Assembly (NCBI GenBank): GCA_023267595.1
Contig: JAHFNB010000002.1
Span: 23,947-87,946, forward strand
Direction: 5' to 3'
Origin: a bacterium
GTDB lineage: Bacteria; Patescibacteriota; Minisyncoccia; Phycocordibacterales; UBA5272
Length of the DNA stretch: 64,000 nucleotides
Below the pieces are notes generated by a model. That model did not search any database and was not told the origin of the DNA. It was given only the letters and a program-made list of their open reading frames with translations. Position numbers and translations under genes: made by a program. Positions 4,406 through 56,924 of this stretch are shown here, one piece after another. Numbering within the stretch: position 1 is the stretch's first letter; the number at the start of each line of letters is the position of its first letter.

Positions 4406-4480
4406 GGCCCTATCGTCTATCGGTTAGGACGTATCCTTCTCAAGGATAAAAGCGCGGTTCGATTCCGCGTAGGGTCACCA
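4406..4480 (+). tRNA. tRNA-Glu (anticodon CTC), CCA encoded
   Basis: Hand-folded cloverleaf: acceptor GGCCCTA/TAGGGTC, anticodon arm TATCC-TTCTCAA-GGATA, T-arm CGCGG-TTCGATT-CCGCG, discriminator A plus CCA. An extended -10 (tgtgcTATAAT) lies about 15 nt upstream. Confidence 0.85.
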
Positions 4481-4536: not shown

Positions 4537-6258
4537 ATGAGTTTTAAGTTTAAATCAGAGGATAAATCAATTGAAGAAGCTTTGTTTGGAATAAACAACC
4601 TAAGAGTTCCTCAGTTTCAAAGGCCTTACACATGGGAAGAAGACCAGTGCGGGGATTTTTGGAATGATCTAACTGATGATGATTCTTTTTTTCTGGGACA
4701 ATTTATTCTTAACTTCGAAAACAAGGAAAAGGAAAAATTTGTAGACATTGTTGATGGTCAACAAAGAACGACAAGTATATTAATACTATGTGCCGTTTTC
4801 CGCGATAAGTTAAAAGAGTTAGGTTTTAACGATGACGCAGATGTAATACAGGACAATGTGATGATTAGTAGAAAAAGTTTTGACGGGCCAGTCTTTAAGG
4901 TGCTGGTTTCACCCAACGTTAGTTCTTTTTTTGAAAAACACATTCAAACGGGTCAGAATGTGATTCAAACTAATACTTCATTTGATAATGATGAAGAAAA
5001 GAGGGTGATAAAAAACTATCTATTTTTTAAGGAGCAACTTAATGAACGCCTGTCTGGTTTAGATTTAAGTCATCAAGTCAAAGAAATAAAAAGAATTCAA
5101 ACTTTTCTGCTCAACACTAGAATAATTGTTACAGAAATCTATGATGAAAATGATGCTTATGAAATTTTTGAATCTGTGAATAATACAGGTATAGAGCTTG
5201 GGGTTGCGGACCTATTAAAAAATTTCTTGTTCAAGAGAGTTAAAATTGAAGAAGGGGGTTCAGTGTCAGATATAATGGATAAATGGAATGAAGTTTTAGA
5301 AAATGTCCAAAATTCTGAATTAACAAAATTTATAAGATATTATTGGCTTTCAAAACAAAAGGTTTTTGTAACTGAAGCAAAATTGTTTAAAGCAATCAAA
5401 AATCACCCTATAACCAGTGGTAAAGTATTACTACAAGAGCTTGTCGATAACGCTAAAATCTATTATGATTTACGAAACCCTCTTGATGCTGATTTTCAAA
5501 ATGTAGAGAACGTAGAAAGAGTTAGAAATTCCCTCATAGGAATAAGAGAGATGAATATTACTCAATGTTATGTTTTATTACTCTCTATCTATAGAAATAA
5601 AGATAAGATTAATACAAATTGGATAACAGTTTTTGAGCTTATTGAAAAATTTAATTTTATTTATCATGCTGTATCAAAATTACCAGCAAATAAGGTAGAA
5701 AAATTGTATCAAGAACTTGCCTTTAAAATAGAAGACATTGTAAACAAGAATGAAAACAGTGATTCGATGAGAGTTATTTTGGAAACTGAATTCAATAATC
5801 TTGAGAATAAATTAAAATCACTATTGCCCCCTAAAGAGGTTTTTATTCTAGGTTTTTCAGATCTCACTTATAAAAAGAAAGGTCTATGTCGATATACATT
5901 ATCAAAAATCGAAGAAAGTTTTGGAACCAAAGAGTATGTGCTTAACCACCCTACAATTACCATTGAGCATATATTACCTCAAAAACCTGGGAAAGACTGG
6001 AATTTAACATCCGGACAAATAAAAAACTATGTTCACAATATAGGTAATTTAACATTACTAGGTAAAAAACCTAATGGCACAGTTCAAAATAAGTCTATTG
6101 CAGATAAAATCATTATTTTAAAAGAATCAACAGAAGTAAAAATAACCCAGAAACTACTTTCTCAGATTGAGCCTACTGGTATATGGAATGAGGAATCTAT
6201 TAAAAGTCGAGCTATAGAGTTGGCAAATGTTGCCTTTGATAAGGTCTGGAAAATCTAA
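4537..6258 (+). CDS. GmrSD-family type IV restriction endonuclease-like protein (DUF262 N-terminal ParB-like NTPase + DUF1524 C-terminal His-Me nuclease)
   Basis: 573 aa. N-terminus has the DUF262 signature IVDGQQRTTS and FESVNNTG. C-terminus has the DUF1524 His-Me finger pattern IEHILPQ ... HNIGNLTLL ... N. Confidence 0.75.
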   Translation: MSFKFKSEDKSIEEALFGINNLRVPQFQRPYTWEEDQCGDFWNDLTDDDSFFLGQFILNFENKEKEKFVDIVDGQQRTTSILILCAVFRDKLKELGFNDDADVIQDNVMISRKSFDGPVFKVLVSPNVSSFFEKHIQTGQNVIQTNTSFDNDEEKRVIKNYLFFKEQLNERLSGLDLSHQVKEIKRIQTFLLNTRIIVTEIYDENDAYEIFESVNNTGIELGVADLLKNFLFKRVKIEEGGSVSDIMDKWNEVLENVQNSELTKFIRYYWLSKQKVFVTEAKLFKAIKNHPITSGKVLLQELVDNAKIYYDLRNPLDADFQNVENVERVRNSLIGIREMNITQCYVLLLSIYRNKDKINTNWITVFELIEKFNFIYHAVSKLPANKVEKLYQELAFKIEDIVNKNENSDSMRVILETEFNNLENKLKSLLPPKEVFILGFSDLTYKKKGLCRYTLSKIEESFGTKEYVLNHPTITIEHILPQKPGKDWNLTSGQIKNYVHNIGNLTLLGKKPNGTVQNKSIADKIIILKESTEVKITQKLLSQIEPTGIWNEESIKSRAIELANVAFDKVWKI

Positions 6259-6408
6259 ATCTACGCACGAGAAGGGTCAAAATGATATGCTAAAAACAAA
6301 CAAATAAACCTTGTGGGGGGGAATGAACCCATTAAGTTCTACCTGTTGAACGCTCACAGATAACAATGAGCAGTATTTTGGTGCGATTTTCATATTTGTG
6401 ATCCTATA

Positions 6409-6430
6409 GCAAGCCAACTGCTTGGCTTGC
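6409..6430 (+). repeat. Small hairpin GCAAGCCAA-ctgc-TTGGCTTGC immediately preceding structured element copy C
   Basis: Perfect 9-bp stem with the same ctgc loop as the hairpin that precedes copy B. Confidence 0.5.
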
Positions 6431-6433
6431 GAA

Positions 6434-6517
6434 GGAATCGAATAGGGGTCGAGGAGTCTCCTGTTTCGAACGAAGTAAGAAACGAGACGAGGTGACCGAT
6501 TCCGCGTAGGGTCACAG
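6434..6517 (+). repeat. Structured GC-rich element, copy C (GGAATCG...GAATAGGGGTCG...TGACC-GATTCC + tRNA-Glu 3'-end mimic)
   Basis: Shares the outer-stem architecture and GAATAGGGGTCG box with copies A (26863-26951) and B (56687-56789, minus strand). It ends with a 19-nt copy of the tRNA-Glu 3' end. Confidence 0.5.
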
Positions 6518-6594
6518 AATTGTCTTTTACCAAAAAACCTTTATTTTATAAGGTTTTTTGGTTATTACTATATAGGTTTCTTGGGCTAAAATGC

Positions 6595-6623
6595 TTGACA
6601 AAGGTGTTTAAATCTGCTATAAT
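6595..6623 (+). promoter_or_regulatory. Sigma70-like promoter (TTGACA-17 nt-TATAAT) upstream of the 6755 gene
   Basis: cTTGACAaaggtgtttaaatctgcTATAATga matches the consensus. Confidence 0.4.
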
Positions 6624-6754: not shown

Positions 6755-7291
6755 ATGATCAAAAACATTTATAAGGTAAGTCAAATACTCGCGTTTGTGC
6801 CATTCATGGCCATCCCAAGTATCTCACTTGCTTCACATATTGGCTCACTGAAAACTGCTTCTGTAACCACAGAACAAGTCTCAGTTGAAGATCTCCGTCA
6901 AGAAAAAGCAGATGCCATCGATTCTTATTTTAAGGATCGTTCAATGCCACTTAAAGGTACAGGTATGACATTCGTACTCGTTGCCGAGAAGTATGGTCTT
7001 GATTGGCGTCTACTTCCTGCAATTGCAGTTCGTGAATCCTCAGGTGGAAAGAATGCGTGTGGAAACAATCCATTCGGTTGGGGATCATGTAAGTTACATA
7101 ACTTCGGAAGTTTTGAACAGGCTATTGAATCTCTAGGTAAAAACTTAGGAGGTGCTAACCCAAAGACTGCTCGATACTATGCTGGAAAGTCAACTGCAGA
7201 AAAGTTATATCACTATAACGGTACTGTACTTGCTACATATCCAGATGAAGTTACTGAAATTATGAAATTAATCGAGACCGATAATAGTTAA
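6755..7291 (+). CDS. Secreted peptidoglycan hydrolase-like protein (glucosaminidase / FlgJ-type lysozyme-like domain)
   Basis: N-terminal signal-like hydrophobic segment. The motif LLPAIAVRESSGGKNACGNNPFGWGS resembles the ALESGWG...NNLFGI core of GH73 glucosaminidase domains. Confidence 0.5.
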   Translation: MIKNIYKVSQILAFVPFMAIPSISLASHIGSLKTASVTTEQVSVEDLRQEKADAIDSYFKDRSMPLKGTGMTFVLVAEKYGLDWRLLPAIAVRESSGGKNACGNNPFGWGSCKLHNFGSFEQAIESLGKNLGGANPKTARYYAGKSTAEKLYHYNGTVLATYPDEVTEIMKLIETDNS

Positions 7292-8102: not shown

Positions 8103-8192
8103 GGAGAGATGGATGAGTGGTTTAAATCAACGGTTTACTAAACCGTCGACCTTTTATTAGGTCCGTGGGTTCGAATCCCACTCTCTCCGCCA
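8103..8192 (+). tRNA. Class II tRNA (long variable arm; anticodon loop TTACTAA gives apparent anticodon ACT, so assignment is uncertain)
   Basis: Acceptor GGAGAGA/TCTCTCC, anticodon arm ACGGT-TTACTAA-ACCGT, variable arm CGACCTTTTATTAGGTCC, T-arm GTGGG-TTCGAAT-CCCAC, discriminator G plus CCA. Confidence 0.7.
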
Positions 8193-8831: not shown

Positions 8832-9452
8832 TTAATGGGCAAGAGTTAAGGCTACCACATTTCTTGCACCATGTTTAAGAAGTATGTGTCTTGCTTCATC
8901 TAATGTTGCACCTGTTGTGGTTACATCATCAATAAGAATAATATTTAAGTTTTGTACAGATGCTATGACAGAAAATGATTTTTTTTGATTTTGTATACGT
9001 AGAGAGCGTGAACTGGTCTTCACTTGTCTTTTTCTGTATGAAGAACGTTTAAGTAGAGTATTATGTATTTCTAGTGAATAGAGAGTACTGATTGTTTGTG
9101 CGATAACTTCTGCTTGATTATATCCTCGTATGTATTTTCGTATACCTAGCATAGGTACTGGTACAAGTATCCATTTATTTTCTCTTATGAATTGATAATT
9201 ATTCAATTCATAGAGTAATGGTTGTACTAAGTCGCGTCTATGATAGTATTTTATTGCGTGAATAATACGTTTAACTCGTATATCTTTAAAACTATACAAA
9301 CTATGTATATATCTGTGCGGTGTATCAATAGATTTTCTCAGTGATTGTATACAAGGGGTACATAGCACATCTCCTTCTTTATGACATACATAACACGAAG
9401 GAGGAAAAAGCAAAGTAAGTAATTTGTAGAAGTGGGATACTATCGTCCACAT
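8832..9452 (-). CDS. comFC: ComF family competence protein (phosphoribosyltransferase domain)
   Basis: N-terminal Cys4 finger (CYVCHKEGDVLCTPC) plus the PRTase motif ILIDDVTTTGATL. Confidence 0.8.
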   Translation of the reverse strand: MWTIVSHFYKLLTLLFPPSCYVCHKEGDVLCTPCIQSLRKSIDTPHRYIHSLYSFKDIRVKRIIHAIKYYHRRDLVQPLLYELNNYQFIRENKWILVPVPMLGIRKYIRGYNQAEVIAQTISTLYSLEIHNTLLKRSSYRKRQVKTSSRSLRIQNQKKSFSVIASVQNLNIILIDDVTTTGATLDEARHILLKHGARNVVALTLAH

Positions 9453-9499
9453 ATCTGTAGTGTATACCCAAAATTAAGAGCCTTTACGGTGTATACTTT

Positions 9500-10573
9500 A
9501 TGTATATGTTTCCTTTCTTTAAAAAAGAAGAGATAGGACAGGCTATTGGGCTTGATATCGGATCTTCATCAATCAAGGTGGTACAACTTCGTCGTGAAAA
9601 AGAAAAAATAATTCTTGATACATATGGAGAAATTGCACTTGGTCCATATGGTGGAATGCAAGTTGGTCAGGCCGTACATCTTGGGGAAGAAAAAACAATA
9701 GAAGCAATTAACGACGTTCTTAAAGAAGCAAAAATAACTGCACGAAATGCTGTTGTTGCAATAGATCCATCAAGCGCATATGTATCTTTGGTTAAAGTTC
9801 CAAAAGTTGATGATAATGAATTAAAAACAATGATGCCACTAGAAGCACGTAAGTATATCCCTGTTCCGCTTTCAGAGGTGCAAATGGATTGGTGGCATAT
9901 CCCAACAACTATTAATATTGGTAAAGAAGAACGTATGGTAAACGTGGTACTCGCAGCAGTAAGTAATGACACTATGACGGCATATGATCGTATTATTCAA
10001 AAAGTTGGTTTCAAAAATGTTGAATATGAAATACATGGGTATAGTATTATTCGCAGTTGTTCACCGCAGACACAAGGAATGATTCTCTATGTTGATATTG
10101 GAGCACAATATACGACGCTTTCACTTGTGTACCAAAATACTGTGCTTGATATGCATGTTATCTCACGAGGTTCACAAGATAGTACAATACAACTTTCGAA
10201 AGCACTTTCAATTGCAATTGAAACTGCAGAAGATACAAAGCGAACATTTGGATATCTTGGTGACTCATCTAATTTATATATTAAAGATGTGATGCAATTA
10301 TCTAGTTATCCACTGTTTGGTGAGGTAGCACGTCTATCACTAATGTTCGAAAGAAAGTATAATCAGAATATAGAAGGAATAATTTTAAGTGGCGGTGGTG
10401 CGCGTGTTCCTGGTGTACTTGATGCGTATAATCAAACAGTACATATAGCAGGAAGAATTGCAACACCGTTTGAACAAATTGACGTCCCACCATTTCTTCA
10501 TGAAATGATAGAACGTATTGGTCCAACCTATGCGGTAGCCGTTGGTTGTGCTCTTAAAAAATTAGTTCCATAA
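9500..10573 (+). CDS. pilM: Type IV pilus assembly protein PilM (actin-like ATPase)
   Basis: GLDIGSSSIKVVQL actin-fold N-terminus, about 357 aa, first gene of the pilMNO set. Confidence 0.85.
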   Translation: MYMFPFFKKEEIGQAIGLDIGSSSIKVVQLRREKEKIILDTYGEIALGPYGGMQVGQAVHLGEEKTIEAINDVLKEAKITARNAVVAIDPSSAYVSLVKVPKVDDNELKTMMPLEARKYIPVPLSEVQMDWWHIPTTINIGKEERMVNVVLAAVSNDTMTAYDRIIQKVGFKNVEYEIHGYSIIRSCSPQTQGMILYVDIGAQYTTLSLVYQNTVLDMHVISRGSQDSTIQLSKALSIAIETAEDTKRTFGYLGDSSNLYIKDVMQLSSYPLFGEVARLSLMFERKYNQNIEGIILSGGGARVPGVLDAYNQTVHIAGRIATPFEQIDVPPFLHEMIERIGPTYAVAVGCALKKLVP

Positions 10574-10582
10574 ACCCAATTC

Positions 10583-11347
10583 ATGCCGTTTTCATTTAAA
10601 CCAACAGAAGCAATACAAGCAGAGACGCAAGCCTCTACGCCTCTAAGTGTTGATGGCATCTCTGCTCCTGCTTCATCTTCTGTAACACCATTTTCTACTC
10701 GTTTTTCTTTGGAAGGAAGGGGGATTCTTCAAATAGGTTTGTTTGCTATTTTTGGTTTTGCTATGTTGGTTACTATTATTCTTTTCGGATATAATTATTA
10801 TTTGACTTCACAAATAGAGAATAAAAAAGTACAACTCGCAGCATATGATAAAGAGTTTAGTACATTATCACTTGGTGATATGCAAGCATTATCAAGTCGT
10901 ATAAAAGTTATTGGGAATCTTGTACGAGAACATCCATCAGTTCGTGTTGCATTTCGTATTCTTGAAGAATCTGTAGAGAACCCTGTTATCTATAAAAGTT
11001 TCGATTTACATTTTTCTGACACACTTCGATCGTATGAGTTAGTATTGGCAGCATCTGCACCAGATTATCATTCTGTTGTTGACCAAATGGATACGTTCAA
11101 ACGAAAACCATTTGTGGGCTATATTCGTAGTATTACTCTTAGTGGTTTACGTCCAGACACATCAGGAAAAGTTAATTTTAACTTGAAGATGCCTATTGCG
11201 ATAACAGGCATGCTTCCAGAAGGTCTTACATTTCAAGATGTACCAGAGAATATACCAAATAGTACTGTGAGTACTTCTTCTCAGGCAACGAGCACTTCAT
11301 CACAAGCAACAAGTACAAATAAAATTGTTGTTCCATCAAAACCATAA
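10583..11347 (+). CDS. pilN: PilN-like type IV pilus assembly protein (single TM)
   Basis: One N-proximal TM segment (ILQIGLFAIFGFAMLVTIILFGY), position after pilM, Ser/Thr-rich C-terminus. Confidence 0.55.
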   Translation: MPFSFKPTEAIQAETQASTPLSVDGISAPASSSVTPFSTRFSLEGRGILQIGLFAIFGFAMLVTIILFGYNYYLTSQIENKKVQLAAYDKEFSTLSLGDMQALSSRIKVIGNLVREHPSVRVAFRILEESVENPVIYKSFDLHFSDTLRSYELVLAASAPDYHSVVDQMDTFKRKPFVGYIRSITLSGLRPDTSGKVNFNLKMPIAITGMLPEGLTFQDVPENIPNSTVSTSSQATSTSSQATSTNKIVVPSKP

Positions 11348-11906
11348 ATCTATGTCAAAAAATCTTCTTAACATACTTCTTGCGGTTGCATCCTTTGCAC
11401 TCTATTATATAATTATTAATCCTCTCTATACAGGAAGAGGTTCTGTATGGCAACCACAGTATGGTCTTACAACATTGCGTAGTACAAATACTCAGTATGA
11501 TGATACATTACAACAAGCAGAGAGTCTTCTTCAGGATGCAAAGCAGTTAAGTGCAAAGTATAAGTCAATTTCACAAGAGACGAAAGATACCATGAAGGTT
11601 ATGGTGCCTAATCAGGCAGATATGGACCCTGTAAGACTTGTTAGTGAAGTTGATTCTATTGCTGCTCGAACTGGGTTATCAATTAGTGATTTGAATTATT
11701 CTGAAGGGCAAGTCATTGGTAATCGTGGTGTATATACTATTTCTTTTACTGTAAAAACGACGTATACAAAGTTTAAAGAACTTATGCGTAATTTTGAAAC
11801 TTCTTTACGTCTTTTTACAATACAAAGTGTTCAGTTCTCTGTTCCTGAGACTGATGGAAATCTTATTGTATTTCAAGTTAAAATGGATACATACTATATA
11901 AAATAA
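11325..11906 (+). CDS. pilO: PilO-like type IV pilus assembly protein
   Basis: N-terminal TM segment (LLNILLAVASFALYYIII), then a coiled-coil-like region; position pilM-N-O. Confidence 0.5.
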   Translation: MLFHQNHKSMSKNLLNILLAVASFALYYIIINPLYTGRGSVWQPQYGLTTLRSTNTQYDDTLQQAESLLQDAKQLSAKYKSISQETKDTMKVMVPNQADMDPVRLVSEVDSIAARTGLSISDLNYSEGQVIGNRGVYTISFTVKTTYTKFKELMRNFETSLRLFTIQSVQFSVPETDGNLIVFQVKMDTYYIK

Positions 11907-11909
11907 TTT

Positions 11910-12248
11910 ATGCAATTACCCTCATCATTTCTTCAAAAGAAAACACTCATTATGGAAATAGGTATTCTTGTTGTATTTTTGATTGGTATGTATTATCTCT
12001 ATACAATGTTTAGTGAACCAGATACAACTACAACATCATCACAAGCAAGCGAACAACTACTTGGTCAGAACCTAACTCTTTTCTTAAAAGCAGTACGTAA
12101 TGATAAATTATCATTTGATACATCATCATTTATGAATCAACCACTGATTGAGCAATTGCAAGATTTCTCTGAAACAATTATCCCTGCGTCATCACGTGGA
12201 CGTGACGATCCATTTGCACCTTATGCTTTTACTCGACCTCTTCGTTAG
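11910..12248 (+). CDS. Small membrane protein (possible PilP-like)
   Basis: N-terminal TM segment (IGILVVFLIGMYYLY); positional inference only. Confidence 0.35.
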   Translation: MQLPSSFLQKKTLIMEIGILVVFLIGMYYLYTMFSEPDTTTTSSQASEQLLGQNLTLFLKAVRNDKLSFDTSSFMNQPLIEQLQDFSETIIPASSRGRDDPFAPYAFTRPLR

Positions 12249-13971
12249 TCAAAATAAGTTAACAGAATTAGAAGCAAAAGACATTGAGTCTGATCTTTCT
12301 CTTCGTGATGATTTACTTGTCGATACTGCACTTGCTGCGAAAAAAATTACTCCTGAAGAAATTACTGAGGTGCGCAGTGTTCTCTACGGTCTTCCTATTT
12401 ATAAAGATGAGATTCCTGAAGGAAAAGAACTCACAAAATATATTAGTGTCGTACAATCAAAGCAATTACTTGCGGTGCCACTAGAATTAAAAGAAGGAGT
12501 ATTATCTGTTGGTGTTGTTGACCCAGAACATGCAAATGTGCTTGATAGTTTACAGTTTTTATTTGGTACTGATCATCAGGCATACAAAGTATATTTGATA
12601 ACGTACGATGCCTACAGAAAACATTTTGGACTAGCAACAGAAGTTCCTGATGAAAAAGCATCACTTACTACCAAAGTTGATGATACTGTCCTTTCTTATA
12701 TTTCAAAAGATGAAACAGGAGAAAAAGATGCACAAGGATTAAATGAAGAAATGGATTTATCTAATGTAACAGGACTTCTTGATGAAGGATTAGCAAAGTT
12801 ACCTATTCCAGATATTTTTAGTACGATACTTCGTTATGCAATTGATAATGGAGCCAGTGATATACATATTGAACATATTGGTACTGCAGTACGTGCGCGT
12901 GTCAGAATGGATGGACAATTAGAAACAATTACGACACTTCCGATGAAGATGCATCCAATGCTTGTCGCACGTATCAAGATTTTATGTTCTATAAAATTAG
13001 ATGAAAAGAGAAAGCCTCAAGATGGACGATTTAGTACCAAATTTGGTGATCATACTATCGACTACCGTGTATCAACGTTTCCTGGGTATTATGGAGAAAA
13101 GGTGGTGCTCCGTATTTTGGATAGTTATAAGGGAGTACGACCAATTGATACGCTTGGATTTGGTGAGCAACAAATGAAAGAAATTCGTGATGCACTCGCA
13201 AGGCCATATGGAATGATCCTTATTTGTGGGCCTACAGGAAGTGGAAAGACCACGACGTTGTATTCAATGTTAAATGAAATAGACCGTGAACACAGAAATG
13301 TAGTGTCTCTTGAAGATCCAATAGAATACAATGTACCGTCAATGAATCAATCACAAGTATTCCCAGAGATTGGCTATACGTTTGCTTCAGGACTGCGTTC
13401 AATACTACGTCAAGATCCTGATGTTATTATGGTTGGAGAAATTCGTGATGCAGAAACTGCGCAACTTGCAATTCAAGCCGCACTCACAGGACACTTAGTA
13501 TTTTCAACAATTCACACGAATACGGCAATAGGAGTTGTTACACGTTTACTTGATATGGGTATAGAGCCGTACCTTATTGCACCTACAATTATTGCAACGA
13601 TTGGACAACGTCTTGCACGACAAATTGCAGAAGGATGTGCAGAAACTGTACAAATGACTACAGGTCTTACTGAAATAGTGCAAGAATCATTTAAAGATTT
13701 ACCCGATGAATTCAAAAAGAATCTTCCATTGGATAAACCACTTCATGAAGCAAAAGGAAATGCACAATTTGCAAATGGCATGAAAGGACGAGTTCCAGTA
13801 TTTGAAGTTCTTACGTTTACACAACCAATTGAAGAAGCAGTACTTCATAGTAAAGGTGAAGAAGAGATTTGGAAATTAGCACGTGCAAATGGCATGATTA
13901 CCATGAAAGAAGATGCAATTATTAAATGCATTAATGGCCTTATTCCGTTTGTCGAAATTAATGAACTTTAA
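12223..13971 (+). CDS. pilB: Type IV pilus assembly ATPase PilB (GspE family)
   Basis: GspE N-terminal domain, Walker A GPTGSGKTT, Asp/His boxes and C-terminal Cys-containing region. The ORF track starts at 12148, which overlaps the upstream gene, so the ATG at 12223 is preferred; the start remains uncertain. Confidence 0.9.
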   Translation: MLLLDLFVSQNKLTELEAKDIESDLSLRDDLLVDTALAAKKITPEEITEVRSVLYGLPIYKDEIPEGKELTKYISVVQSKQLLAVPLELKEGVLSVGVVDPEHANVLDSLQFLFGTDHQAYKVYLITYDAYRKHFGLATEVPDEKASLTTKVDDTVLSYISKDETGEKDAQGLNEEMDLSNVTGLLDEGLAKLPIPDIFSTILRYAIDNGASDIHIEHIGTAVRARVRMDGQLETITTLPMKMHPMLVARIKILCSIKLDEKRKPQDGRFSTKFGDHTIDYRVSTFPGYYGEKVVLRILDSYKGVRPIDTLGFGEQQMKEIRDALARPYGMILICGPTGSGKTTTLYSMLNEIDREHRNVVSLEDPIEYNVPSMNQSQVFPEIGYTFASGLRSILRQDPDVIMVGEIRDAETAQLAIQAALTGHLVFSTIHTNTAIGVVTRLLDMGIEPYLIAPTIIATIGQRLARQIAEGCAETVQMTTGLTEIVQESFKDLPDEFKKNLPLDKPLHEAKGNAQFANGMKGRVPVFEVLTFTQPIEEAVLHSKGEEEIWKLARANGMITMKEDAIIKCINGLIPFVEINEL

Positions 13972-14013
13972 AACAAAGAAATTGAATGATTACTAGTGAC
14001 TTAGAAAAAATAT

Positions 14014-14042
14014 TGACTTTTATATAAATATGTGCTATTATT
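14014..14042 (+). promoter_or_regulatory. Sigma70-like promoter (TTGACT-17 nt-tgcTATTAT) for the orphan 14092 gene
   Basis: aTTGACTtttatataaatatgtgcTATTATtt, with a strong SD aggaagga 8 nt before the ATG at 14092. Confidence 0.35.
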
Positions 14043-14091
14043 TATATAAATAAAAGTTCTTTTATAACTCCTTACAGGAAGGATAATAGAC

Positions 14092-14574
14092 ATGGAAAAC
14101 AATGGAACTATTGGAGTCCTTAAGGTCAGAAGAAGAAGACTCATCATCCCTGCGTGTGACGGTACTCGCGTTTTTTCAGAAATGAGAAAAGAGTATGGTG
14201 AAATCTATTTTGTAGACCAGCAAACCGTACAAAAAAACCATGTAACAAAAAAAGTCATAGTGGATGTTTACAAGTCGGTGTGTGATGCAACGTTTGTGCA
14301 GATGCTCGCCCCTTTTGGAAATGATCTCGATAGATTTTGCTTGACTCAACATCAGATTGACTTTTTTTTCAGGCGTCACTACTATACCTGCTCCTTTTTC
14401 AAAGCACCGTACGGAATCTTTTTCCTTCTCAAGGAAAAAGATCAGTATGTCCTCGCAAATATACGCTTACACACATTTCATTATTTGTCTGGGCTGATAT
14501 TTCCCCTTGATCACCCTTTCATTTGGCTTGCTGAGCATAACCCTCTTTTAGTTTTACCACAACAAGTGGTTTGA
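14092..14574 (+). CDS. Hypothetical protein (orphan insertion between pilB and pilT)
   Basis: 160-aa ORF with its own promoter, SD and downstream terminator; no recognisable domain. Confidence 0.4.
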   Translation: MENNGTIGVLKVRRRRLIIPACDGTRVFSEMRKEYGEIYFVDQQTVQKNHVTKKVIVDVYKSVCDATFVQMLAPFGNDLDRFCLTQHQIDFFFRRHYYTCSFFKAPYGIFFLLKEKDQYVLANIRLHTFHYLSGLIFPLDHPFIWLAEHNPLLVLPQQVV

Positions 14575-14604
14575 TTTTATGGTCAAATGATTTCTAGATA
14601 TTTA

Positions 14605-14638
14605 GTACCTCTGACCAATTTGGTCCGAGGTACTTTTT
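14605..14638 (+). terminator. Rho-independent terminator (gtacctctgacca-att-tggtccgaggtac + ttttt)
   Basis: 12-bp imperfect stem plus T-run directly after the 14092-14574 ORF. Confidence 0.5.
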
Positions 14639-14798
14639 CATGACGGCAGAAATGAAAAGTAGAATAGTTAAATTATAGAAAAATCTAACTTATAAAATCT
14701 GTGTCATATTTTTCTATTAACTGAAGTTATTGTCTGTAAACTATCTTAATTGTGGGTTGTTCAATTGTTTTCCATAACTTGCTTGTTATACTGATATC

Positions 14799-15857
14799 AT
14801 GAACTACGAGACAGAACTTGATGACCTCATCATGACACTTGTGAAAGAGGCAGGATCAGATCTTCATTTAACATCAGGATCATTCCCAACACTTCGTGTT
14901 AGTCGTGATCTCATTCCTCTTACGCGTAAAAAAGAATTGACAGGAGAAGATACGCTCGGATTTTTACGTGTTATGGTTGGGGAAAAGACACTTACAAATT
15001 TTGTAGTAAGTCAGGAGTTAGATTTTTCATATGAACATAAAAAAGAATACCGTCTTCGAGGAAATGCATCATTTCAACGAGGATTTATTTCTGTAGCCCT
15101 TCGTCTCATTCCAAAAGTTCATGCAATAGCAGAACTTAATCTTCCAGAGCAAATCGTAGCAATTGCACGTGAAAGACAAGGTTTTTTCCTTGTTGTTGGT
15201 CCTGTTGGACAAGGAAAATCTACAACACTTGCATCAATGATTGGGCTTATTAACAGTGAAGCAAAGCGTCACATTGTTACCATTGAAGATCCAATTGAAT
15301 TTCGTTTTGATCAAGATAAATCACTCATTGAACAACGTGAAGTCGGTGTTGATACCAAAGATTTTAATACTGCACTTAATCATGTTTTTCGTCAGGACGC
15401 AGATGTGATTATGATTGGAGAAATGCGTGATAAAGAAACCATTTCTGCCGCAGTCACTGCTGCAGAAACAGGTCACCTTGTTTTCTCTACAATTCATGCA
15501 AACTCTGCCGCACAAACAGTAGATCGTATTATAGATAGTTTCCCTGCAGATCAACAAGATCAGATTCGTCTTCAACTCGCATCATCTCTTATTGGTATTT
15601 TGTCCCAACGTCTTGTTCCTCGTGTGTCTGGTGGACTTATTCCTGCATTTGAACTTCTCTTAAATACTCCTGCAGTATCAAATCTTATACGTGAACGTCG
15701 TACGCATGAAATTGATGTGATTATTGAGACTGGTTCACAAGATGGTATGATAGATCTTGATAGAAATCTTGCAGAATTGGTACGTAAAGGAGAAGTTACT
15801 AAAGATGATGCACGTTCATTTGCACGCCGCCAAAATATATTTGATCGTCTTATCTAA
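14799..15857 (+). CDS. pilT: Twitching-motility ATPase PilT
   Basis: 352 aa, Walker A GPVGQGKSTT, Asp box, His box TIHANSAAQT, PilT-length retraction ATPase. Confidence 0.9.
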   Translation: MNYETELDDLIMTLVKEAGSDLHLTSGSFPTLRVSRDLIPLTRKKELTGEDTLGFLRVMVGEKTLTNFVVSQELDFSYEHKKEYRLRGNASFQRGFISVALRLIPKVHAIAELNLPEQIVAIARERQGFFLVVGPVGQGKSTTLASMIGLINSEAKRHIVTIEDPIEFRFDQDKSLIEQREVGVDTKDFNTALNHVFRQDADVIMIGEMRDKETISAAVTAAETGHLVFSTIHANSAAQTVDRIIDSFPADQQDQIRLQLASSLIGILSQRLVPRVSGGLIPAFELLLNTPAVSNLIRERRTHEIDVIIETGSQDGMIDLDRNLAELVRKGEVTKDDARSFARRQNIFDRLI

Positions 15858-15866
15858 TTTACGTTT

Positions 15867-17084
15867 ATGCTTTTTCACTATACCGCGATACAAGGAGATG
15901 GAACGAAAATAGAAGCAGACGTTGATAGTTATTCTTTGGATACGGCGATAGATTTACTACAAAAAAGAGGACTCAGTATTGTTGATATCAAAGAAAAAAC
16001 TGAAACGACACAATTACAACTTTTTACAGGATTTTCTTTATTTAAACCAAAGGTAAAATCAAAAGACGTCGTTATCTTTTCTCGTCAGGTAGCAACACTA
16101 TTTGAAGCAGGAGTTTCTGCACTTAAAGCATTTCGACTTCTTGCATCAGAAAACGAAAGTAAAGCATTACAAATAGAATTGACACATGTAGCAGATGATA
16201 TAGAAGCCGGAGTTTCTCTCTCAGATGCACTCGGTAGACGTCCAGAACTTTTCTCTACTTTTTATGTAAATATGGTAAAAGCAGGAGAAGAAAGTGGAAA
16301 ATTAAATGAAACCTTTTTATTTTTGGCAGATTACTTGGATCGTGATTATGAATTACATCAAAAAGTAAAAAAAGCCCTCACGTATCCAACATTCGTTGTG
16401 GGAACATTTATTGCCATTATGATTGGAATGTTCACCTTTGTGATTCCAAAAATGGCTGCTCTTTTTGCCGATAATGATGCAACACTTCCTCTTGTTACAA
16501 GAATAGTGCTGGGTATTTCTGATATCTTTGTAAAATATGGACCAATCACTTTTCCTTTACTTGTGGTAGCAGGTTGGTTTTTCTATAGATGGTCAAAAAC
16601 AGAGATGGGGACTCGTAAAATTGATGAGTTAAAGACAAAGACACCAGTTCTTAGAACTCTCTATCAAAGAATATTTCTAACGCGCTTAGCAGATAACATG
16701 AATACTATGCTTACAAGTGGAGTACCTATTGTAAAATCTATTGATATTACTGCTGCCGTTGTTGACAATGTTGTTTTTAAAGATCTCCTTAATCGTGTAT
16801 CACAAAAAGTGCAAGGTGGTACTGCTTTTTCAAAGGCACTATACGAAGAGCCGTTAGTCCCAAATATTCTCATTCAAATGGTACATATTGGTGAAGAGAC
16901 AGGAGAAATAGGGTATATTTTAAAGACACTTGCTACATTTTATAAGCGAGAACTAGATACAAGTATTGATAATGTTATTGGTCTTATTGAGCCTGCGATG
17001 ATTGTAGGCTTGGGTATTGCGGTTGGTATCCTTGTGTCGTCTGTACTTTTGCCTATGTATACACTTTCTTCTGCTATAAGTTAA
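15867..17084 (+). CDS. pilC: Type IV pilus platform protein PilC (GspF family)
   Basis: 405 aa polytopic membrane protein with duplicated GspF domains (two hydrophobic blocks). Confidence 0.85.
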   Translation: MLFHYTAIQGDGTKIEADVDSYSLDTAIDLLQKRGLSIVDIKEKTETTQLQLFTGFSLFKPKVKSKDVVIFSRQVATLFEAGVSALKAFRLLASENESKALQIELTHVADDIEAGVSLSDALGRRPELFSTFYVNMVKAGEESGKLNETFLFLADYLDRDYELHQKVKKALTYPTFVVGTFIAIMIGMFTFVIPKMAALFADNDATLPLVTRIVLGISDIFVKYGPITFPLLVVAGWFFYRWSKTEMGTRKIDELKTKTPVLRTLYQRIFLTRLADNMNTMLTSGVPIVKSIDITAAVVDNVVFKDLLNRVSQKVQGGTAFSKALYEEPLVPNILIQMVHIGEETGEIGYILKTLATFYKRELDTSIDNVIGLIEPAMIVGLGIAVGILVSSVLLPMYTLSSAIS

Positions 17085-26430: not shown

Positions 26431-26501
26431 AGCGGAGTGGAGTAGAGGTAACTCACGAGGCTCATAACCTCGGGACACCAGTTCGATTCTGGTCTCCGCA
26501 A
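26431..26501 (+). tRNA. tRNA-Met (anticodon CAT), possibly initiator
   Basis: Anticodon arm CGAGG-CTCATAA-CCTCG, T-arm ACCAG-TTCGATT-CTGGT, acceptor AGCGGAG/CTCCGCA with unpaired 1:72 (A/A). CAT could also be tRNA-Ile2 (lysidine). Confidence 0.7.
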
Positions 26502-26527
26502 CAAGTAGTGCTACGTGACAAACACCA

Positions 26528-26568
26528 GGGAAGAAGCGCCCGCCACGTAGTGGCGGGCGCTTCTTCCC
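26528..26568. repeat. Perfect 19-bp GC-rich hairpin (GGGAAGAAGCGCCCGCCAC-gtag-GTGGCGGGCGCTTCTTCCC)
   Basis: Seen directly between the two tRNA-Met genes. The GC content is very atypical for this AT-rich window. Confidence 0.5.
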
Positions 26569-26627
26569 ATTAACATAAGTACTATCTTTTATCGGGCTTA
26601 TGGGTTACAGTTATTAAATAAAAATAT

Positions 26628-26701
26628 GTCAGTGTAGCTCAGTTGGTTAGAGCGAAGGACTCATAAGCCTTAGGTCGGAGGTTCGATCCCTCCCACTGAC
26701 A
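26628..26701 (+). tRNA. tRNA-Met (anticodon CAT), elongator-type or Ile2
   Basis: Acceptor GTCAGTG/CACTGAC perfectly paired, anticodon loop CTCATAA, variable AGGTC, T-arm GGAGG-TTCGATC-CCTCC. Confidence 0.75.
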
Positions 26702-26757
26702 CCCGTTTATACGGATTCTAGTTTTTTGCTAGAATGTGCAAGTAAGATTACAATCAT

Positions 26758-26831
26758 GCAGTCGTAGCTCAGCTGGTTAGAGCACCGCCCTGTCACGGCG
26801 GGGGTCGTGGGTTCAAATCCCATCGACTGCG
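26758..26831 (+). tRNA. tRNA-Asp (anticodon GTC)
   Basis: Acceptor GCAGTCG/CGACTGC, anticodon arm CCGCC-CTGTCAC-GGCGG, T-arm GTGGG-TTCAAAT-CCCAT. Confidence 0.85.
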
Positions 26832-26839
26832 CAAAAAGT

Positions 26840-26857
26840 AACTGACCTATATCAGTT
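26840..26857 (+). repeat. Small hairpin (AACTGA-cctata-TCAGTT) preceding structured element copy A
   Basis: Same relative position as the hairpins that precede copies B and C. Confidence 0.4.
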
Positions 26858-26862
26858 GCGTT

Positions 26863-26951
26863 GGGATTTGAATAGGGGTTGCGAAATTACTTCGAGCCTG
26901 CCTCGCCGTTAGGCGGGCAACGCGAGGCAGGTTTGCGACCAAATCCTATCA
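26863..26951 (+). repeat. Structured GC-rich element, copy A (GGGATTTGAATAGGGGTTGCGAAATTACTTCGAGCCTGCCTCGCC...GCGAGGCAGGTTTGCGACCAAATCCTATCA)
   Basis: Nested inverted repeats GGATTTG/CAAATCC and CCTGCCTCGC/GCGAGGCAGG. Roughly 75% identical to the minus-strand element at 56687-56789, with compensatory changes. The 3' end mimics the tRNA-Asp 3' end (about 15 of 18 nt). Confidence 0.5.
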
Positions 26952-27002
26952 CTAGTAGTATTTGCATATTTTTCTCGACCATGTTAGATTTCACAATATT
27001 AT

Positions 27003-56612: not shown

Positions 56613-56686
56613 GAAAAATCTCCCTGTTTAGAATCTTTTGTACAAACCCATTTATAGACTACTACAGAAAAAAATATTTGTATACT

Positions 56687-56789
56687 TTGTGCCGGGGGTG
56701 GGACTTGGTCACAAAACTACCTCGCATTGCTCGCCTGCCGGTGAGGTAGGCTCGAAGTAGTTTCGCGACCCCATATTCAAGTCCCACAC
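56687..56789 (-). repeat. Structured GC-rich element, copy B (minus-strand sense GTGTGGGACTTGAATATGGGGTCGCGAAACTACTTCGAGCCTACCTCACC...GCGAGGTAGTTTTGTGACCAAGTCCCACCCCCGGCA)
   Basis: Homologous to copy A with compensatory changes in both stems. Its last 21 nt (plus-strand TTGTGCCGGGGGTGGGACTTG, 56687-56707) exactly duplicate the 3' end of tRNA-Leu at 56841-56861. It is preceded in the minus-strand sense by hairpin AAAAGTGAC-ctgc-GTCACTTTT (56790-56810). Confidence 0.5.
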
Positions 56790-56843
56790 AAAAGTGACGC
56801 AGGTCACTTTTTCCCAACACAAAATCATTTCATTCTTTTTTTG

Positions 56844-56924
56844 TGCCGGGGGTGGGACTTGAACCCACACACCTTACGATACACGATTTTGAGTCGTGCG
56901 CGTCTACCATTCCGCCACCCCGGC
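56844..56924 (-). tRNA. tRNA-Leu (anticodon CAA), class II
   Basis: Minus-strand fold: acceptor GCCGGGG/CCCCGGC, anticodon arm CACGA-CTCAAAA-TCGTG, long variable arm, T-arm GTGGG-TTCAAGT-CCCAC. Confidence 0.85.

Follow-up and report, generated by a model that had tools for sequence, protein, structure and literature searches.

What is the structured segment that directly follows a tRNA-Asp gene in this CPR genome, and why does it end in a likeness of the tRNA 3' end? The original prediction had listed it as one of three related copies, A, B and C, in the window, the whole stretch of 64,000 nucleotides that was analysed.

Copies A, B and C in the window

The tRNA-Asp(GTC) gene, recognised by ARAGORN, by sequence and by Rfam (tRNA, 71.4 bits), occupies positions 26758..26832 of the + strand, and copy A follows directly on the same strand (26833..26957; 67.8 bits with the covariance model R1), as had been proposed. 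Its 123-nt fold has a z of -4.9, and the nested stems described earlier, GGGAUUUG/CAAAUCC(U) and CCUGCCUCGC/GCGAGGCAGG, are present in the minimum-free-energy structure. Fold and alignment place hairpin P0 (GUAACUGA / UCAGUUGC) at 26838..26859, with a mutated loop that reads CCUAUA in place of the family's conserved CUGC. The P1 5' strand (TTGGGATTTG, 26861..26870), delimited by sequence, fold and alignment, pairs with 26940-26948 and matches the T-stem 5' strand together with the T-loop of tRNA-Asp in reverse complement. It runs into the conserved box GAATAGGGGTTG (26870..26881), whose columns are invariant in 53 sequences and which takes in the final base of P1, the AAUAGG bulge and the beginning of P2. 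Hairpin P2 (26877..26939), supported by fold, alignment and covariation, has GGTTG/CGACC as its closing helix and a GC-rich inner stem, CCTGCCTCGC/GCGAGGCAGG. The terminal repeat DR2 (CAAATCCTATCACTAGTA, 26940..26957) is a degenerate duplicate of DR1, the 3' part of the tRNA-Asp gene from C56 (26814-26832): the match of about 15 of 18 nt initially given shrinks to 11 of 18 without gaps, and 13 matches need one gap (hand counts). Copy A has neither a left arm nor an acceptor-complement strand. Judged against the orthologous sites in loci L207, L210 and L194, it is a degraded, decaying family member, probably an old insertion of the tRNA-3'-end element that was partly deleted.

Copy B, on the minus strand as predicted, is a complete solo element (about 56686..56842, 93.8 bits with R1) behind tRNA-Leu(CAA) (56843..56924, minus strand; ARAGORN, sequence and Rfam). 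On that strand a left spacer precedes the acceptor-complement strand (56820-56813), followed by P0 with a CUGC loop (56812-56790), the P1 5' strand (56787-56778), the box (56778-56766), P2 (56771-56707) and DR2 (56707-56686). The latter is identical in 22 of 22 bases to DR1 (56861-56840), from C56 through three trailer bases beyond the gene end, which bears out the tRNA-Leu duplicate reported before. Copy B folds at -65 kcal/mol (z = -6.6), and 21 of its 22 DR bases are paired when it is folded as a circle.

Copy C, for which the original prediction gave no position, lies at 6395..6516 on the + strand (104.9 bits with R1) and is the right-end module of a cassette. Its target tRNA-Glu(CTC) (4406..4480, + strand; ARAGORN, sequence and Rfam) lies 2 kb upstream, and between them stands a defence gene for a 573-aa GmrSD-type (DUF262/DUF1524) type IV restriction protein (4537..6258, + strand), with Pfam matches to PF03235 (2.5e-34) and PF07510 (3.9e-21). 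The module, all on the + strand, comprises the acceptor-complement strand (6395-6407), P0 with a CUGC loop (6409-6430), the P1 5' strand (6434-6440), the box (6440-6451), P2 (6447-6497) and DR2 (6497-6516). Its fold has a z of -5.8 and an acceptor-like stem of 13 bp. The 19 of 19 duplicate of the tRNA-Glu 3' end is exact (DR1, 4460-4478, against 6497-6515).

Several relations drawn between the three copies are confirmed, some with corrections. The hairpin seen ahead of each copy is P0 in all three, and the box is common to them, with a 1-nt insertion in that of B (GAATATGGGGTCG). All three end in a duplicate of a tRNA 3' end, the Asp one degenerate, but C does not adjoin its tRNA. Copies A and B are closer than the 75% identity estimated by eye, with 84% over 82 nt, and the two compensatory differences between them are real: P1 has U-A in A and C-G in B, and the inner stem G-C in A and A-U in B. 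R1 scores A, B and C at 68-105 bits and the rest of the 64 kb at no more than 13.4 bits; the three match by construction because all are in the seed alignment. With filters off, R1 finds no further copy in the window, and the two tRNA-Ser and two tRNA-Met genes there are without the element. ARAGORN makes no tRNA or tmRNA call at A, B or C, and neither a promoter of their own nor a terminator within the elements themselves is predicted for any of the three. No recombinase occurs among the 30 window ORFs scanned. These ORFs gave SecA, a type IV pilus cluster, a ComF-like protein, ABC transporters, UDG, ParB, MiaA and GatB.

A family of folded repeats at CPR tRNA genes

The family was sought with two pattern scans and with R1. 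A covariance-model search had been put forward as the way to more copies, and R1 finds 125 beyond A, B and C, in 72 loci. With the strict pattern, the fold is present in 47 of 49 genome matches, and all 47 are MAGs of CPR bacteria (Patescibacteria). The second scan, for T-loops with A at position 57, yields 25 loci, 22 of them with a copy above 60 bits. Copies occur in CPR lineages that diverged deeply from one another and have very small genomes. Ninety-one of the 125 have a tRNA on their own strand no more than 120 nt upstream, representing 27 anticodons and 15 amino acids, and the element is found on the strand of its tRNA throughout. Two-thirds of the tRNA genes of the sampled loci, which are a biased sample, are occupied by the family. 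In viral contigs a loose pattern gives at least 120 matches, none with the fold, and the two strict patterns give zero; phage and plasmid records yield no blastn match. In these searches the ~135-nt repeat family is abundant in CPR/Patescibacteria and specific to CPR bacteria. It has apparently gone undescribed until now: a literature search of incomplete coverage, and so no proof of novelty, found no description of the element.

The earlier statement that the motif belongs to no known ncRNA family stands. A gathering-threshold Rfam scan of the whole window returns only tRNAs, as do scans at E-values up to 10 over A, C and the strong member L137, and the best overlapping Rfam matches reach at most half their gathering scores. 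K-turns, self-cleaving ribozyme cores and the bulge-helix-bulge of archaeal-type tRNA introns do not fit by eye, and no Rfam ribozyme family is matched.

The unit extends over ~135-165 nt, from tRNA C56 to a conserved ...GUGAC. Its first segment is the direct repeat (DR), a tRNA 3' end that belongs to the unit itself together with 3-4 trailer bases. The DR starts at C56, ends 1-4 nt beyond the tRNA end and measures 19-23 nt in complete copies. Next comes a terminator-like left-arm loop, where cargo genes sit when present; in solo copies a terminator-like palindrome lies between tRNA and core. The common layout then runs, 5' to 3', from a complement of the tRNA acceptor 3' strand and trailer through P0, a complement of T-stem 3' strand and T-loop, the AAUAGG bulge and P2 (closing helix GGUCG/UGACC) to the direct repeat from C56. 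The internal complement of the DR reaches into trailer bases that are not part of the tRNA. Since the 5' strands of the element complement the tRNA end that is duplicated, the unit as a whole mimics a three-way junction of tRNA-like form, in which the T-like helix passes into the acceptor 3' strand with zero intervening nucleotides, as it does in tRNA.

Selection on RNA or single-stranded DNA structure, suggested originally from the A/B differences, is upheld by an alignment of 67 copies. Pairing holds in 96.1% of cells versus 75.1% in shuffles, and the covariation score is 0.588 versus 0.197 in shuffles and at most 0.11 with partners slid. Compensatory double changes occur in 20 of 26 pairs, and one G.U pair is kept in 66 of the 67 copies. 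The single-strand fold pairs nearly all bases of the unit, DR included; circularised units fold at -53 to -83 kcal/mol (-28 to -39 when shuffled), with 19-21 of 22 DR bases paired. A Saccharibacteria subclass has extra hairpins at one defined position, the bulge. The complement of the tRNA end in the 5' strands, the CPR specificity and the degraded state of A had escaped the original prediction.

Empty sites, arrays and cargo

Orthologous tRNA genes of different genomes, which are not members of one population, differ in occupancy. At tRNA-Arg(TCG), the sites of L129, L130 and L169 are empty, and those of L141, L144, L147, L152 and L157 carry the element. At tRNA-Asp, L210 has an empty site, L207 and the 64-kb window have remnants, and intact copies are found in L184, L186, L194, L196, L198, L199 and L201. 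In L165 a solo unit stands between tRNA-Leu(TAA) and cargo, at the exact point where L131 has none. The unit is inserted so that the tRNA stays intact and its older 3' end is displaced downstream, and repeated insertions produce tandem and layered arrays. L170 has two perfect tandem units; in L159 a young copy is followed by a fragment and, behind it, an old diverged copy. Arrays are layered and decay away from the tRNA, DR decay being strongest in the distal DRs. The sequences just after successive DRs in L131 and L165 are similar (about 79% over 73 nt), which a simple insertion model would not predict and which appears to count against it.

Solo units contain no ORF at all. Cargo is bounded by the tRNA or a copy on one side and by the next copy on the other, and consists of accessory or defence genes, never a recombinase among the ORFs scanned: GmrSD, a HAD hydrolase, IucA/IucC with a hydrolase, YgjP, HerA, NUDIX and His_Phos. 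Cassettes from two different MAGs encode IucA/IucC proteins that share 84% identity. Single scans of 20 ORFs, from the cargo or next to copies, give no match to a recombinase family. The neighbourhood was also tallied around 88 copies of the genome-scan loci, which span 8-15 kb: 127 ORFs lie no more than 1.2 kb from copies, and their 25 commonest families include no recombinase or integrase and no HUH-transposase. In these same two sets no transposase or Cas1 is seen near copies. GmrSD homologues with 63-85% identity adjoin tRNA-Glu or tRNA-Gln or lie at contig starts, and neither the element nor a tRNA-end repeat occurs within 6 kb of the close homologues examined; these element-free homologues neither prove nor disprove cassette mobility.

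Mobile element or tRNA-like RNA

We privilege the hypothesis, with a probability of about 0.5, that the A-type module is the conserved end of small non-autonomous integrative elements residing in tRNA 3' ends of Patescibacteria, which would move by site-specific recombination at a folded single strand with a host enzyme acting in trans. The comparative data (large family, insertion polymorphism, tandem and layered arrays, cargo, decayed copies) thereby favour one candidate of the original prediction, the structured terminus of a miniature tRNA-targeting mobile element family. The case for mobility is built from sequence comparison, in which empty and occupied orthologous sites, tandem units, layered decaying arrays and cargo without recombinase seem to favour it. 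Recombination would join the tRNA T-loop, between T55 and C56, to the GAC|C junction of the folded strand at the P1/P2 boundary. As this junction lies opposite the bulge, the fold would offer a one-strand duplex copy of the target, like integron attC and CTX-phage attP. The putative recombining enzyme would be host-encoded. Three points weigh against mobility: no recombinase, nuclease or transposase is linked to the elements in the ORFs and neighbour families scanned, neither an excised circle nor an empty site inside one population was seen, and retargeting to 27 anticodon species would seem to require that the DR and two complements match each tRNA while the backbone (P0, box, P2) stays near-identical across tRNAs and lineages.

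The likeness to integron attC lies in a structured, imperfectly palindromic site 3' of accessory genes, kept more in structure than in sequence and with an unpaired stretch on one strand; as with integron cassettes, arrays occur and the recombinase is not in the cassette. The attC-like succession of P1, a 6-nt one-sided bulge, P2 and a variable tip is found, a likeness of architecture only. In contrast, the landing site here is the T-loop of many different tRNA genes, the element holds a complement of the whole tRNA 3' end and the extra hairpin P0, most units are empty and the family is limited to CPR bacteria. The RYYYAAC/GTTRRRY cores of attC are absent, the consensus of 53 and 67 aligned copies being TCGAATAGGGGTCG ... 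GTGACC, and no intI/attI is seen near copies (20 single ORFs; 25 commonest families of 127 ORFs). CTX-phage attP likewise has two inverted target-like segments; once annealed, they form a forked hairpin, unpaired in the middle, that imitates the double-stranded target on the chromosome. Tandem arrays arise at that target too, and the recombinase is host-encoded, as is proposed for the element. A folded strand whose duplex imitates the target is found here too, with 19-21 of 22 repeat bases paired in circular folds. The target is however a tRNA gene instead of dif, any Xer role is hypothetical, and the unit, only ~135 nt, carries no phage or replication genes. REP/REPIN (RAYT) sequences and IS200/IS605 ends are also short, hairpin-based, non-autonomous repeats in many copies that are moved in trans, as the element is proposed to be. 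IS608 pairs bases 5' of its hairpin with the sequence of the cleavage site, and the P1 5' strand of the element pairs beside the presumed cut. Its pairing is nevertheless far longer (about 10 + 7-12 bp), it is tied to tRNA 3' ends, direct repeats flank its units and no Y1/HUH transposase is found near copies. No DEDD-recombinase ORF of IS110/IS1111, the partner expected of an IS110 bridge RNA, adjoins any copy.

Two features would fit a functional RNA equally well: box, loop and pairing are strongly conserved between very divergent CPR lineages, and the element keeps strictly to a place behind the tRNA on its strand. The element could be a tRNA-like ncRNA or cis-acting RNA transcribed behind the tRNA or cargo gene, with insertions and arrays as by-products of duplication; its acceptor-like stem on a long T-arm-like helix would be read by RNase P, RNase Z or the CCA-adding enzyme, or would stabilise or terminate the transcript. 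Plant mitochondrial t-elements, which are tRNA-like and punctuate transcripts, viral 3' tRNA-like structures and the tRNA-like domain of tmRNA share this stem-on-helix arrangement and a place at transcript ends; the element differs from them in that a long helix replaces the T-loop, in having no D-arm or anticodon loop and in copying the neighbouring tRNA, trailer included. The constant strand, the strong covariation with its kept G.U pair, the CUGC loop and AAUAGG bulge, the zero-nucleotide junction, the Saccharibacteria hairpins confined to the bulge, which is typical of structured RNAs, and the persistence in very small, deeply divergent genomes all speak for such an RNA. We still consider it an unlikely solution, though one with a real chance of being right, given that presence varies at orthologous tRNAs, that many copies, A among them, are truncated or decayed, and that perfect tandem duplicates and remnants are stacked behind one tRNA. 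Furthermore, the complement includes trailer bases absent from mature tRNA, its acceptor-complement strand would compete in RNA with folding of the upstream tRNA, a terminator-like palindrome separates the core from the tRNA with no own promoter predicted, and even a weak Rfam match is lacking.

Two further explanations also start from DNA. The copies could be relics of ordinary tRNA-integrating islands, the repeat being attR and the conserved 85-135 nt an attP arm for a tyrosine integrase and cofactors, with island and integrase since deleted. A direct repeat from the T-loop to past the tRNA 3' end is the classic sign of integrases that cross over in the T-loop, and here a repeat from the crossover point to the tRNA 3' end does bound the insert; as in such islands and in Prochlorococcus tycheposons, the tRNA is restored, its old 3' end is displaced as a downstream repeat, insertions stack with the oldest repeat farthest from the tRNA, and cargo is accessory and defensive. 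Against this, the element is a tiny unit with reproducible boundaries and perfect tandem repeats, and its conserved end is a covarying fold with an internal complement of the whole repeat, which has no classical role in attP; covariation and the conserved G.U point to a folded single strand and not to a linear array of protein-binding sites. No integrase of its own adjoins the tRNA, where only accessory or defence cargo occurs, nor is one present in the 20 singly scanned ORFs or the commonest families near the 88 genome-scan copies, and viral contigs, phage records and plasmid records are all without a match. We find this origin improbable. A MITE-like cut-and-paste or copy-paste transposon, with the 20-23 nt repeat as a target-site duplication from staggered cuts and the complements as guide-like readers of the target, has a precedent in the casposon Cas1 integrase, which acts at a tRNA-Pro 3' end. 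Such duplication would explain why the repeat always matches the local tRNA, and the elements are small, numerous and non-autonomous. The flanking repeats measure 19-23 nt and coincide with the tRNA end. This origin is nonetheless very improbable: the repeats vary in length, no terminal inverted repeats are evident by eye at unit ends, weaker similarity runs on past the repeat in L131 and L165, and no transposase or Cas1 is seen near copies in the ORFs and neighbour families scanned.

Within the mobile-element hypothesis that we privilege, a bolder and rather unlikely version sees the unit as a mobile minicircle of DNA (or RNA), ~135 nt long and complete in itself, that finds its address by base pairing. 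The two complements would guide it to the tRNA gene, and the invariant scaffold (P0 CUGC loop, AAUAGG bulge, GGUCG/UGACC clamp) would recruit a putative CPR host enzyme for cutting and joining at the junction that the bulge marks. If true, the element would form an insertion system that is programmable, carries no recombinase and differs from integrons, Xer-exploiting elements, IS200/IS605 and IS110 bridge RNAs alike.

Genomes of CPR bacteria measure ~1 Mb, and few mobile elements are recognised in them. One repeat family would here deliver defence and metabolic genes to such genomes without carrying a recombinase. If the fold is a recombination substrate, a third independent case of target imitation by a single-stranded attachment site would join integron attC and CTX attP, and it would be the first to imitate a tRNA gene, re-specified for at least 27 different tRNAs. 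If it is a functional RNA instead, it would represent a widespread new class of tRNA-like RNA in a major bacterial radiation. The element would also account for the frequent breaks of CPR metagenome assemblies at tRNA genes, and the covariance model can annotate such loci. In the search for empty sites inside one population, exact-protein look-ups around A and C returned either no record or only short contigs that break in or near tRNAs.

A structured unit behind tRNA genes

Three of the seven tRNA genes of the window are associated with homologous copies, A, B and C, of one element. Copies A and B directly follow tRNA-Asp (26758-26832) and tRNA-Leu (56843-56924, minus strand), respectively, and a search for duplicated tRNA 3' ends places the end of copy C at 6516, 2 kb downstream of tRNA-Glu (4406-4480). 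All three fold far better than their shuffled sequences (z = -4.9 to -6.6) on a common plan: a hairpin P0, a stem P1, a one-sided AAUA(U)GG bulge (its box has a 1-nt insertion in copy B) and a hairpin P2 with GGUYG/YGACC closure, followed by a duplicate of the tRNA 3' end. Folds, plan and duplicates bear out the original prediction of a structured element after tRNA-Asp that is one of three homologous copies. The compensatory differences that it named between A and B are real and so is their homology, at 84% identity over 82 nt instead of the ~75% estimated by eye. The tRNA-end duplicates are exact as proposed for Leu (22 nt) and Glu (19 nt) and weaker than claimed for Asp, whose degenerate repeat has 13 matches and one gap.

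In all three copies, the P1 5' strand (Asp, ATTTGAA; Leu, ACTTGAA; Glu, AATCGAA) begins as the 5' strand of the T-stem and continues as the T-loop of the same tRNA in reverse complement; its pairing partners are thus the duplicated T-loop and the duplicated 3' strand of the T-stem. An extra strand upstream of P0 in B and C pairs with the duplicated acceptor 3' strand, leading to a tRNA-like three-way junction. Across the family this strand complements also 3-4 trailer bases outside the tRNA, so that the complement is directed at the gene or precursor and not at the mature tRNA. Each unit contains the tRNA 3' end three times, in direct, inverted (split by P0) and direct orientation.

A strict pattern that required the box, the GACC clamp and G57 in the T-loop matched 49 loci in a scan of one genome per prokaryotic species. 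The full architecture is found in 47, all of them metagenome-assembled genomes (MAGs) of Patescibacteria (CPR) labelled Saccharibacteria, Paceibacterota, Nomurabacteria, Parcubacteria, Gracilibacteria or 'bacterium'; the fold is absent from the two non-CPR matches. The window is itself from a CPR bacterium, judging by homologues of its TrhO protein, which are labelled Paceibacterota. The same pattern with A at position 57 yielded 25 metagenome loci, 22 of which have a copy scoring >60 bits behind tRNAs with A57. A covariance model built from 53 sequences, the search for further copies suggested with the original prediction, detects 88 copies in the first set of loci, 37 in the second and only A, B and C in the window, many copies reaching only 20-60 bits or having truncated repeats. 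A copy lies within 120 nt downstream, on the same strand, of 91 of the 136 tRNA genes in the fetched loci, a sample biased by being fetched for holding a copy; the tRNAs concerned cover 27 anticodon species and 15 amino acids. Rfam gives no match even in permissive scans, in agreement with the initial failure to recognise a known non-coding RNA. The strict patterns have no match in viral contigs, blastn gives none in phage and plasmid records, and no description of the element was found in the literature searched, including a 2026 tRNA-gene survey of 95 complete Patescibacteria genomes.

RNAalifold predicts P0, P1, the base of P2 and an inner P2 stem, with compensatory changes in 18 of 26 pairs. 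In an alignment of 67 copies, with the caveat that it was fitted to the model, 96.1% of cells hold a standard pair compared to 75.1% after shuffling and 34-43% with slid partners; the covariation score is 0.588 compared to 0.197 and at most 0.11, respectively. Both sides change in 20 pairs and one G.U pair is kept in 66/67 copies. Some of the P1 covariation is a necessary consequence of the differing tRNAs; P0 and inner P2 are free of this constraint and all their 13 pairs covary. The compensatory pairs and the excess of standard pairs over shuffles support selection at the level of structure, as proposed initially. The P0 CUGC loop and the AAUAGG bulge are invariant or near-invariant single-stranded parts. 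A subclass at tRNA-Arg(TCG) (loci L144, L147, L152 and L157, the latter at 4635-4859) has an extra ~55-75-nt hairpin in place of the bulge UA, between GAA and GGGGTCG, which turns the core into a four-way junction scoring only 33-47 bits in the covariance model.

Occupied sites, empty sites and cargo

The tRNA-Arg(TCG) site of Saccharibacteria, compared by anchoring on a common downstream landmark palindrome, lacks the element in L129, L130 and L169 and holds it in L141, L144, L147, L152 and L157. At the tRNA-Asp site, L210 (TrhO 74% identical to that of the window) has a plain terminator and no element. The syntenic L207 (TrhO 78% identical) kept the left arm, the loop 3' of the tRNA, together with the acceptor complement and P0, and lost P1 and P2; the window kept P0, P1, P2 and a decayed repeat, and lost the left arm. 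Intact copies are present at seven metagenomic tRNA-Asp loci, two of which have a second tandem copy. This series of empty, remnant and intact sites indicates that copy A is an old, eroding insertion. The 85 nt of copy A are the worn end of a CPR-wide, apparently undescribed family. Arrays are found in L170 (two identical tandem units, then a decayed repeat) and L159 (a fragment between a young copy and an old, diverged one), and partial remnants in L147 and L152. In arrays, the copies farther from the tRNA are the more decayed, a gradient that entry of new units at the tRNA would produce.

These regions have other particularities. A palindrome CGTTACA(N2-3)TGTAAC(G), independent of the element, separates the convergent tRNA-Arg(TCG) and tRNA-Gly(GCC) of Saccharibacteria (L129, L130, L132, L141, L144, L147, L152, L169) and may terminate transcription in both directions or bind a protein. 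The block of two tRNA-Met, tRNA-Asp and the remnant is inverted in L207 (1911-2509) relative to the window (26431-26957) between the same flanking genes (a 458-aa gene and TrhO). Independent short-read contigs of the window organism (L122, L124, L206) break inside tRNA-Asp and tRNA-Glu (window ~26798, ~26807 and ~4435), where repeats or population variation may fragment the assemblies.

Cargo is bounded by the tRNA or a copy on one side and by the next copy on the other. It is a 573-aa type IV restriction gene, GmrSD, between tRNA-Glu and copy C in the window (4537-6258, plus strand), and elsewhere a HAD hydrolase, IucA/IucC with a hydrolase, YgjP, HerA, NUDIX or histidine phosphatase. No recombinase family was matched among cargo or copy-adjacent ORFs scanned singly, nor is one among the 25 commonest families of 127 ORFs within 1.2 kb of copies. 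UPF0102/YraN and the CCA-adding enzyme are the top neighbour families because one syntenic tRNA cluster was sampled repeatedly. YraN, an uncharacterised predicted nuclease, is encoded inside the tRNA-Arg/tRNA-Gly/tRNA-Pro/tRNA-Gly cluster of Saccharibacteria (L129-L170; e.g., L141 2933-3340), flanked by the CCA-adding enzyme gene; its placement amid the most heavily occupied tRNAs is probably synteny only.

L131 (3934-6650) and L165 (whole locus), one from a MAG labelled Paceibacterota and the other from one labelled Saccharibacteria, have the same cargo at tRNA-Leu(TAA), an IucA/IucC-like protein (84% amino acid identity) and a hydrolase (63%). This cargo is missing from the site in at least six other genomes. 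The comparison suggests that the cassette moved horizontally as a whole. L131 has GGGCACAA followed directly by the cargo left end, whereas L165 has GGGCACA, then one extra solo unit with GGGCACAA at its end, then the same cargo left end. In Saccharibacteria copies (L132, L141, L147, L158, L172, L173), the left spacer immediately behind the tRNA has a GAGCGAAGCG-type motif that includes GCGAAGC, the sequence of a DNA mini-hairpin known for its extreme stability. L174 has a similar motif between tRNA-Glu and the GmrSD gene (5791-5830).

A putative folded recombination site and its alternatives

Circularised from C56 to ...GUGAC, the unit folds at -53 to -83 kcal/mol versus -28 to -39 kcal/mol for shuffles, with 19-21 of 22 repeat bases paired. 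In the resulting compact cloverleaf, one arm is an acceptor-like hairpin with the left arm as its loop, the second is P0 and the third is P1 leading to P2. The left-arm loop would be the place of the cargo, and closure of the circle the product of recombination between the two repeats. The presumed joining point, between GAC and C, lies on the continuous strand where P1 meets P2 and faces the six unpaired bases. Beyond the observed structure, insertions, arrays and lack of a recombinase near the copies, we infer a single-stranded intermediate that would fold to build a duplex copy of its target, the tRNA T-loop between T55 and C56, to be recombined with the chromosome by a host enzyme acting in trans. 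Integron attC sites and the folded attP of CTX phage follow such a logic, a single strand forming the duplex target copy that a host enzyme recombines with the chromosome. The element has only architecture in common with attC, whose core sites and integrase platform it lacks. It shares the repeat of tRNA-integrating islands but not their integrase, and the target-mimicking fold of CTX-type elements, any link to Xer being hypothetical. These comparisons class it as an integrative element that targets tRNA genes and has a folded attachment site; it is possibly a categorically new insertion unit addressed by base pairing.

We give a probability of about 0.5 to the reading that the element is mobile and integrative and uses its fold as the site of recombination. 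Observations that this reading does not account for count against it: the likeness, in L131 and L165, of the ~70 nt after each successive repeat, and the matching of the repeat and both complements to 27 tRNAs with P0 and P2 near-identical across tRNAs and lineages. The P2 type GAGGAGUCUCCUGUUUUAUGUA... is found in MAGs labelled Paceibacterota, Gracilibacteria and Saccharibacteria as well as in copy C. This near-identity would fit a primarily functional, tRNA-like RNA, as would the strict co-orientation with tRNAs, the conserved P0 loop and bulge, and the subclass hairpin of ~55 nt placed exactly in the bulge. Such a role is nevertheless unlikely considering the presence/absence polymorphism and decay of copies, the terminator-like palindrome between tRNA and core in solo copies and the lack of predicted promoters; an acceptor complement in RNA would, moreover, compete with folding of the upstream tRNA. 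The repeat could also be read as the trace of ordinary genomic islands, an explanation that fails on the reproducible short unit and on the integrase, which was not found among the ORFs scanned near copies, or as the target-site duplication of a transposon, a reading for which no terminal inverted repeats are evident by eye at the unit ends and no transposase was seen near the copies.

Other features of the window

ARAGORN identifies a tRNA-Ser with anticodon ACT (A34) at 8103-8192 (plus strand), adjoining tRNA-Ser(GCT). It makes the same call, again beside tRNA-Ser(GCT), in two other CPR genomes (L125 2406-2493 and L155 982-1069). Apart from tRNA-Arg(ACG), an unmodified A34 is uncommon in bacteria, and the call may reflect decoding peculiar to CPR or a wrongly assigned tRNA. 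Directly 3' of the first tRNA-Met, a GC-rich hairpin of 19 bp without mismatch (26528-26568), scored as a minus-strand terminator, has no relation to the element family. Copy C is directly followed by a terminator-like palindrome of A-tract, hairpin and T-tract (6530-6561). A perfect sigma-70 consensus promoter (TTGACA, 17-nt spacer, TATAAT and TG extension; 6595-6623) precedes the gene at 6755-7291. The region 8832-17084 encodes a ComF-like protein and then a type IV pilus cluster (PilM, PilO, PilB-type ATPase, a second T2SSE ATPase and PilC); CPR bacteria typically have such machinery for pili and DNA uptake, which would matter if the element moved in single-stranded form.
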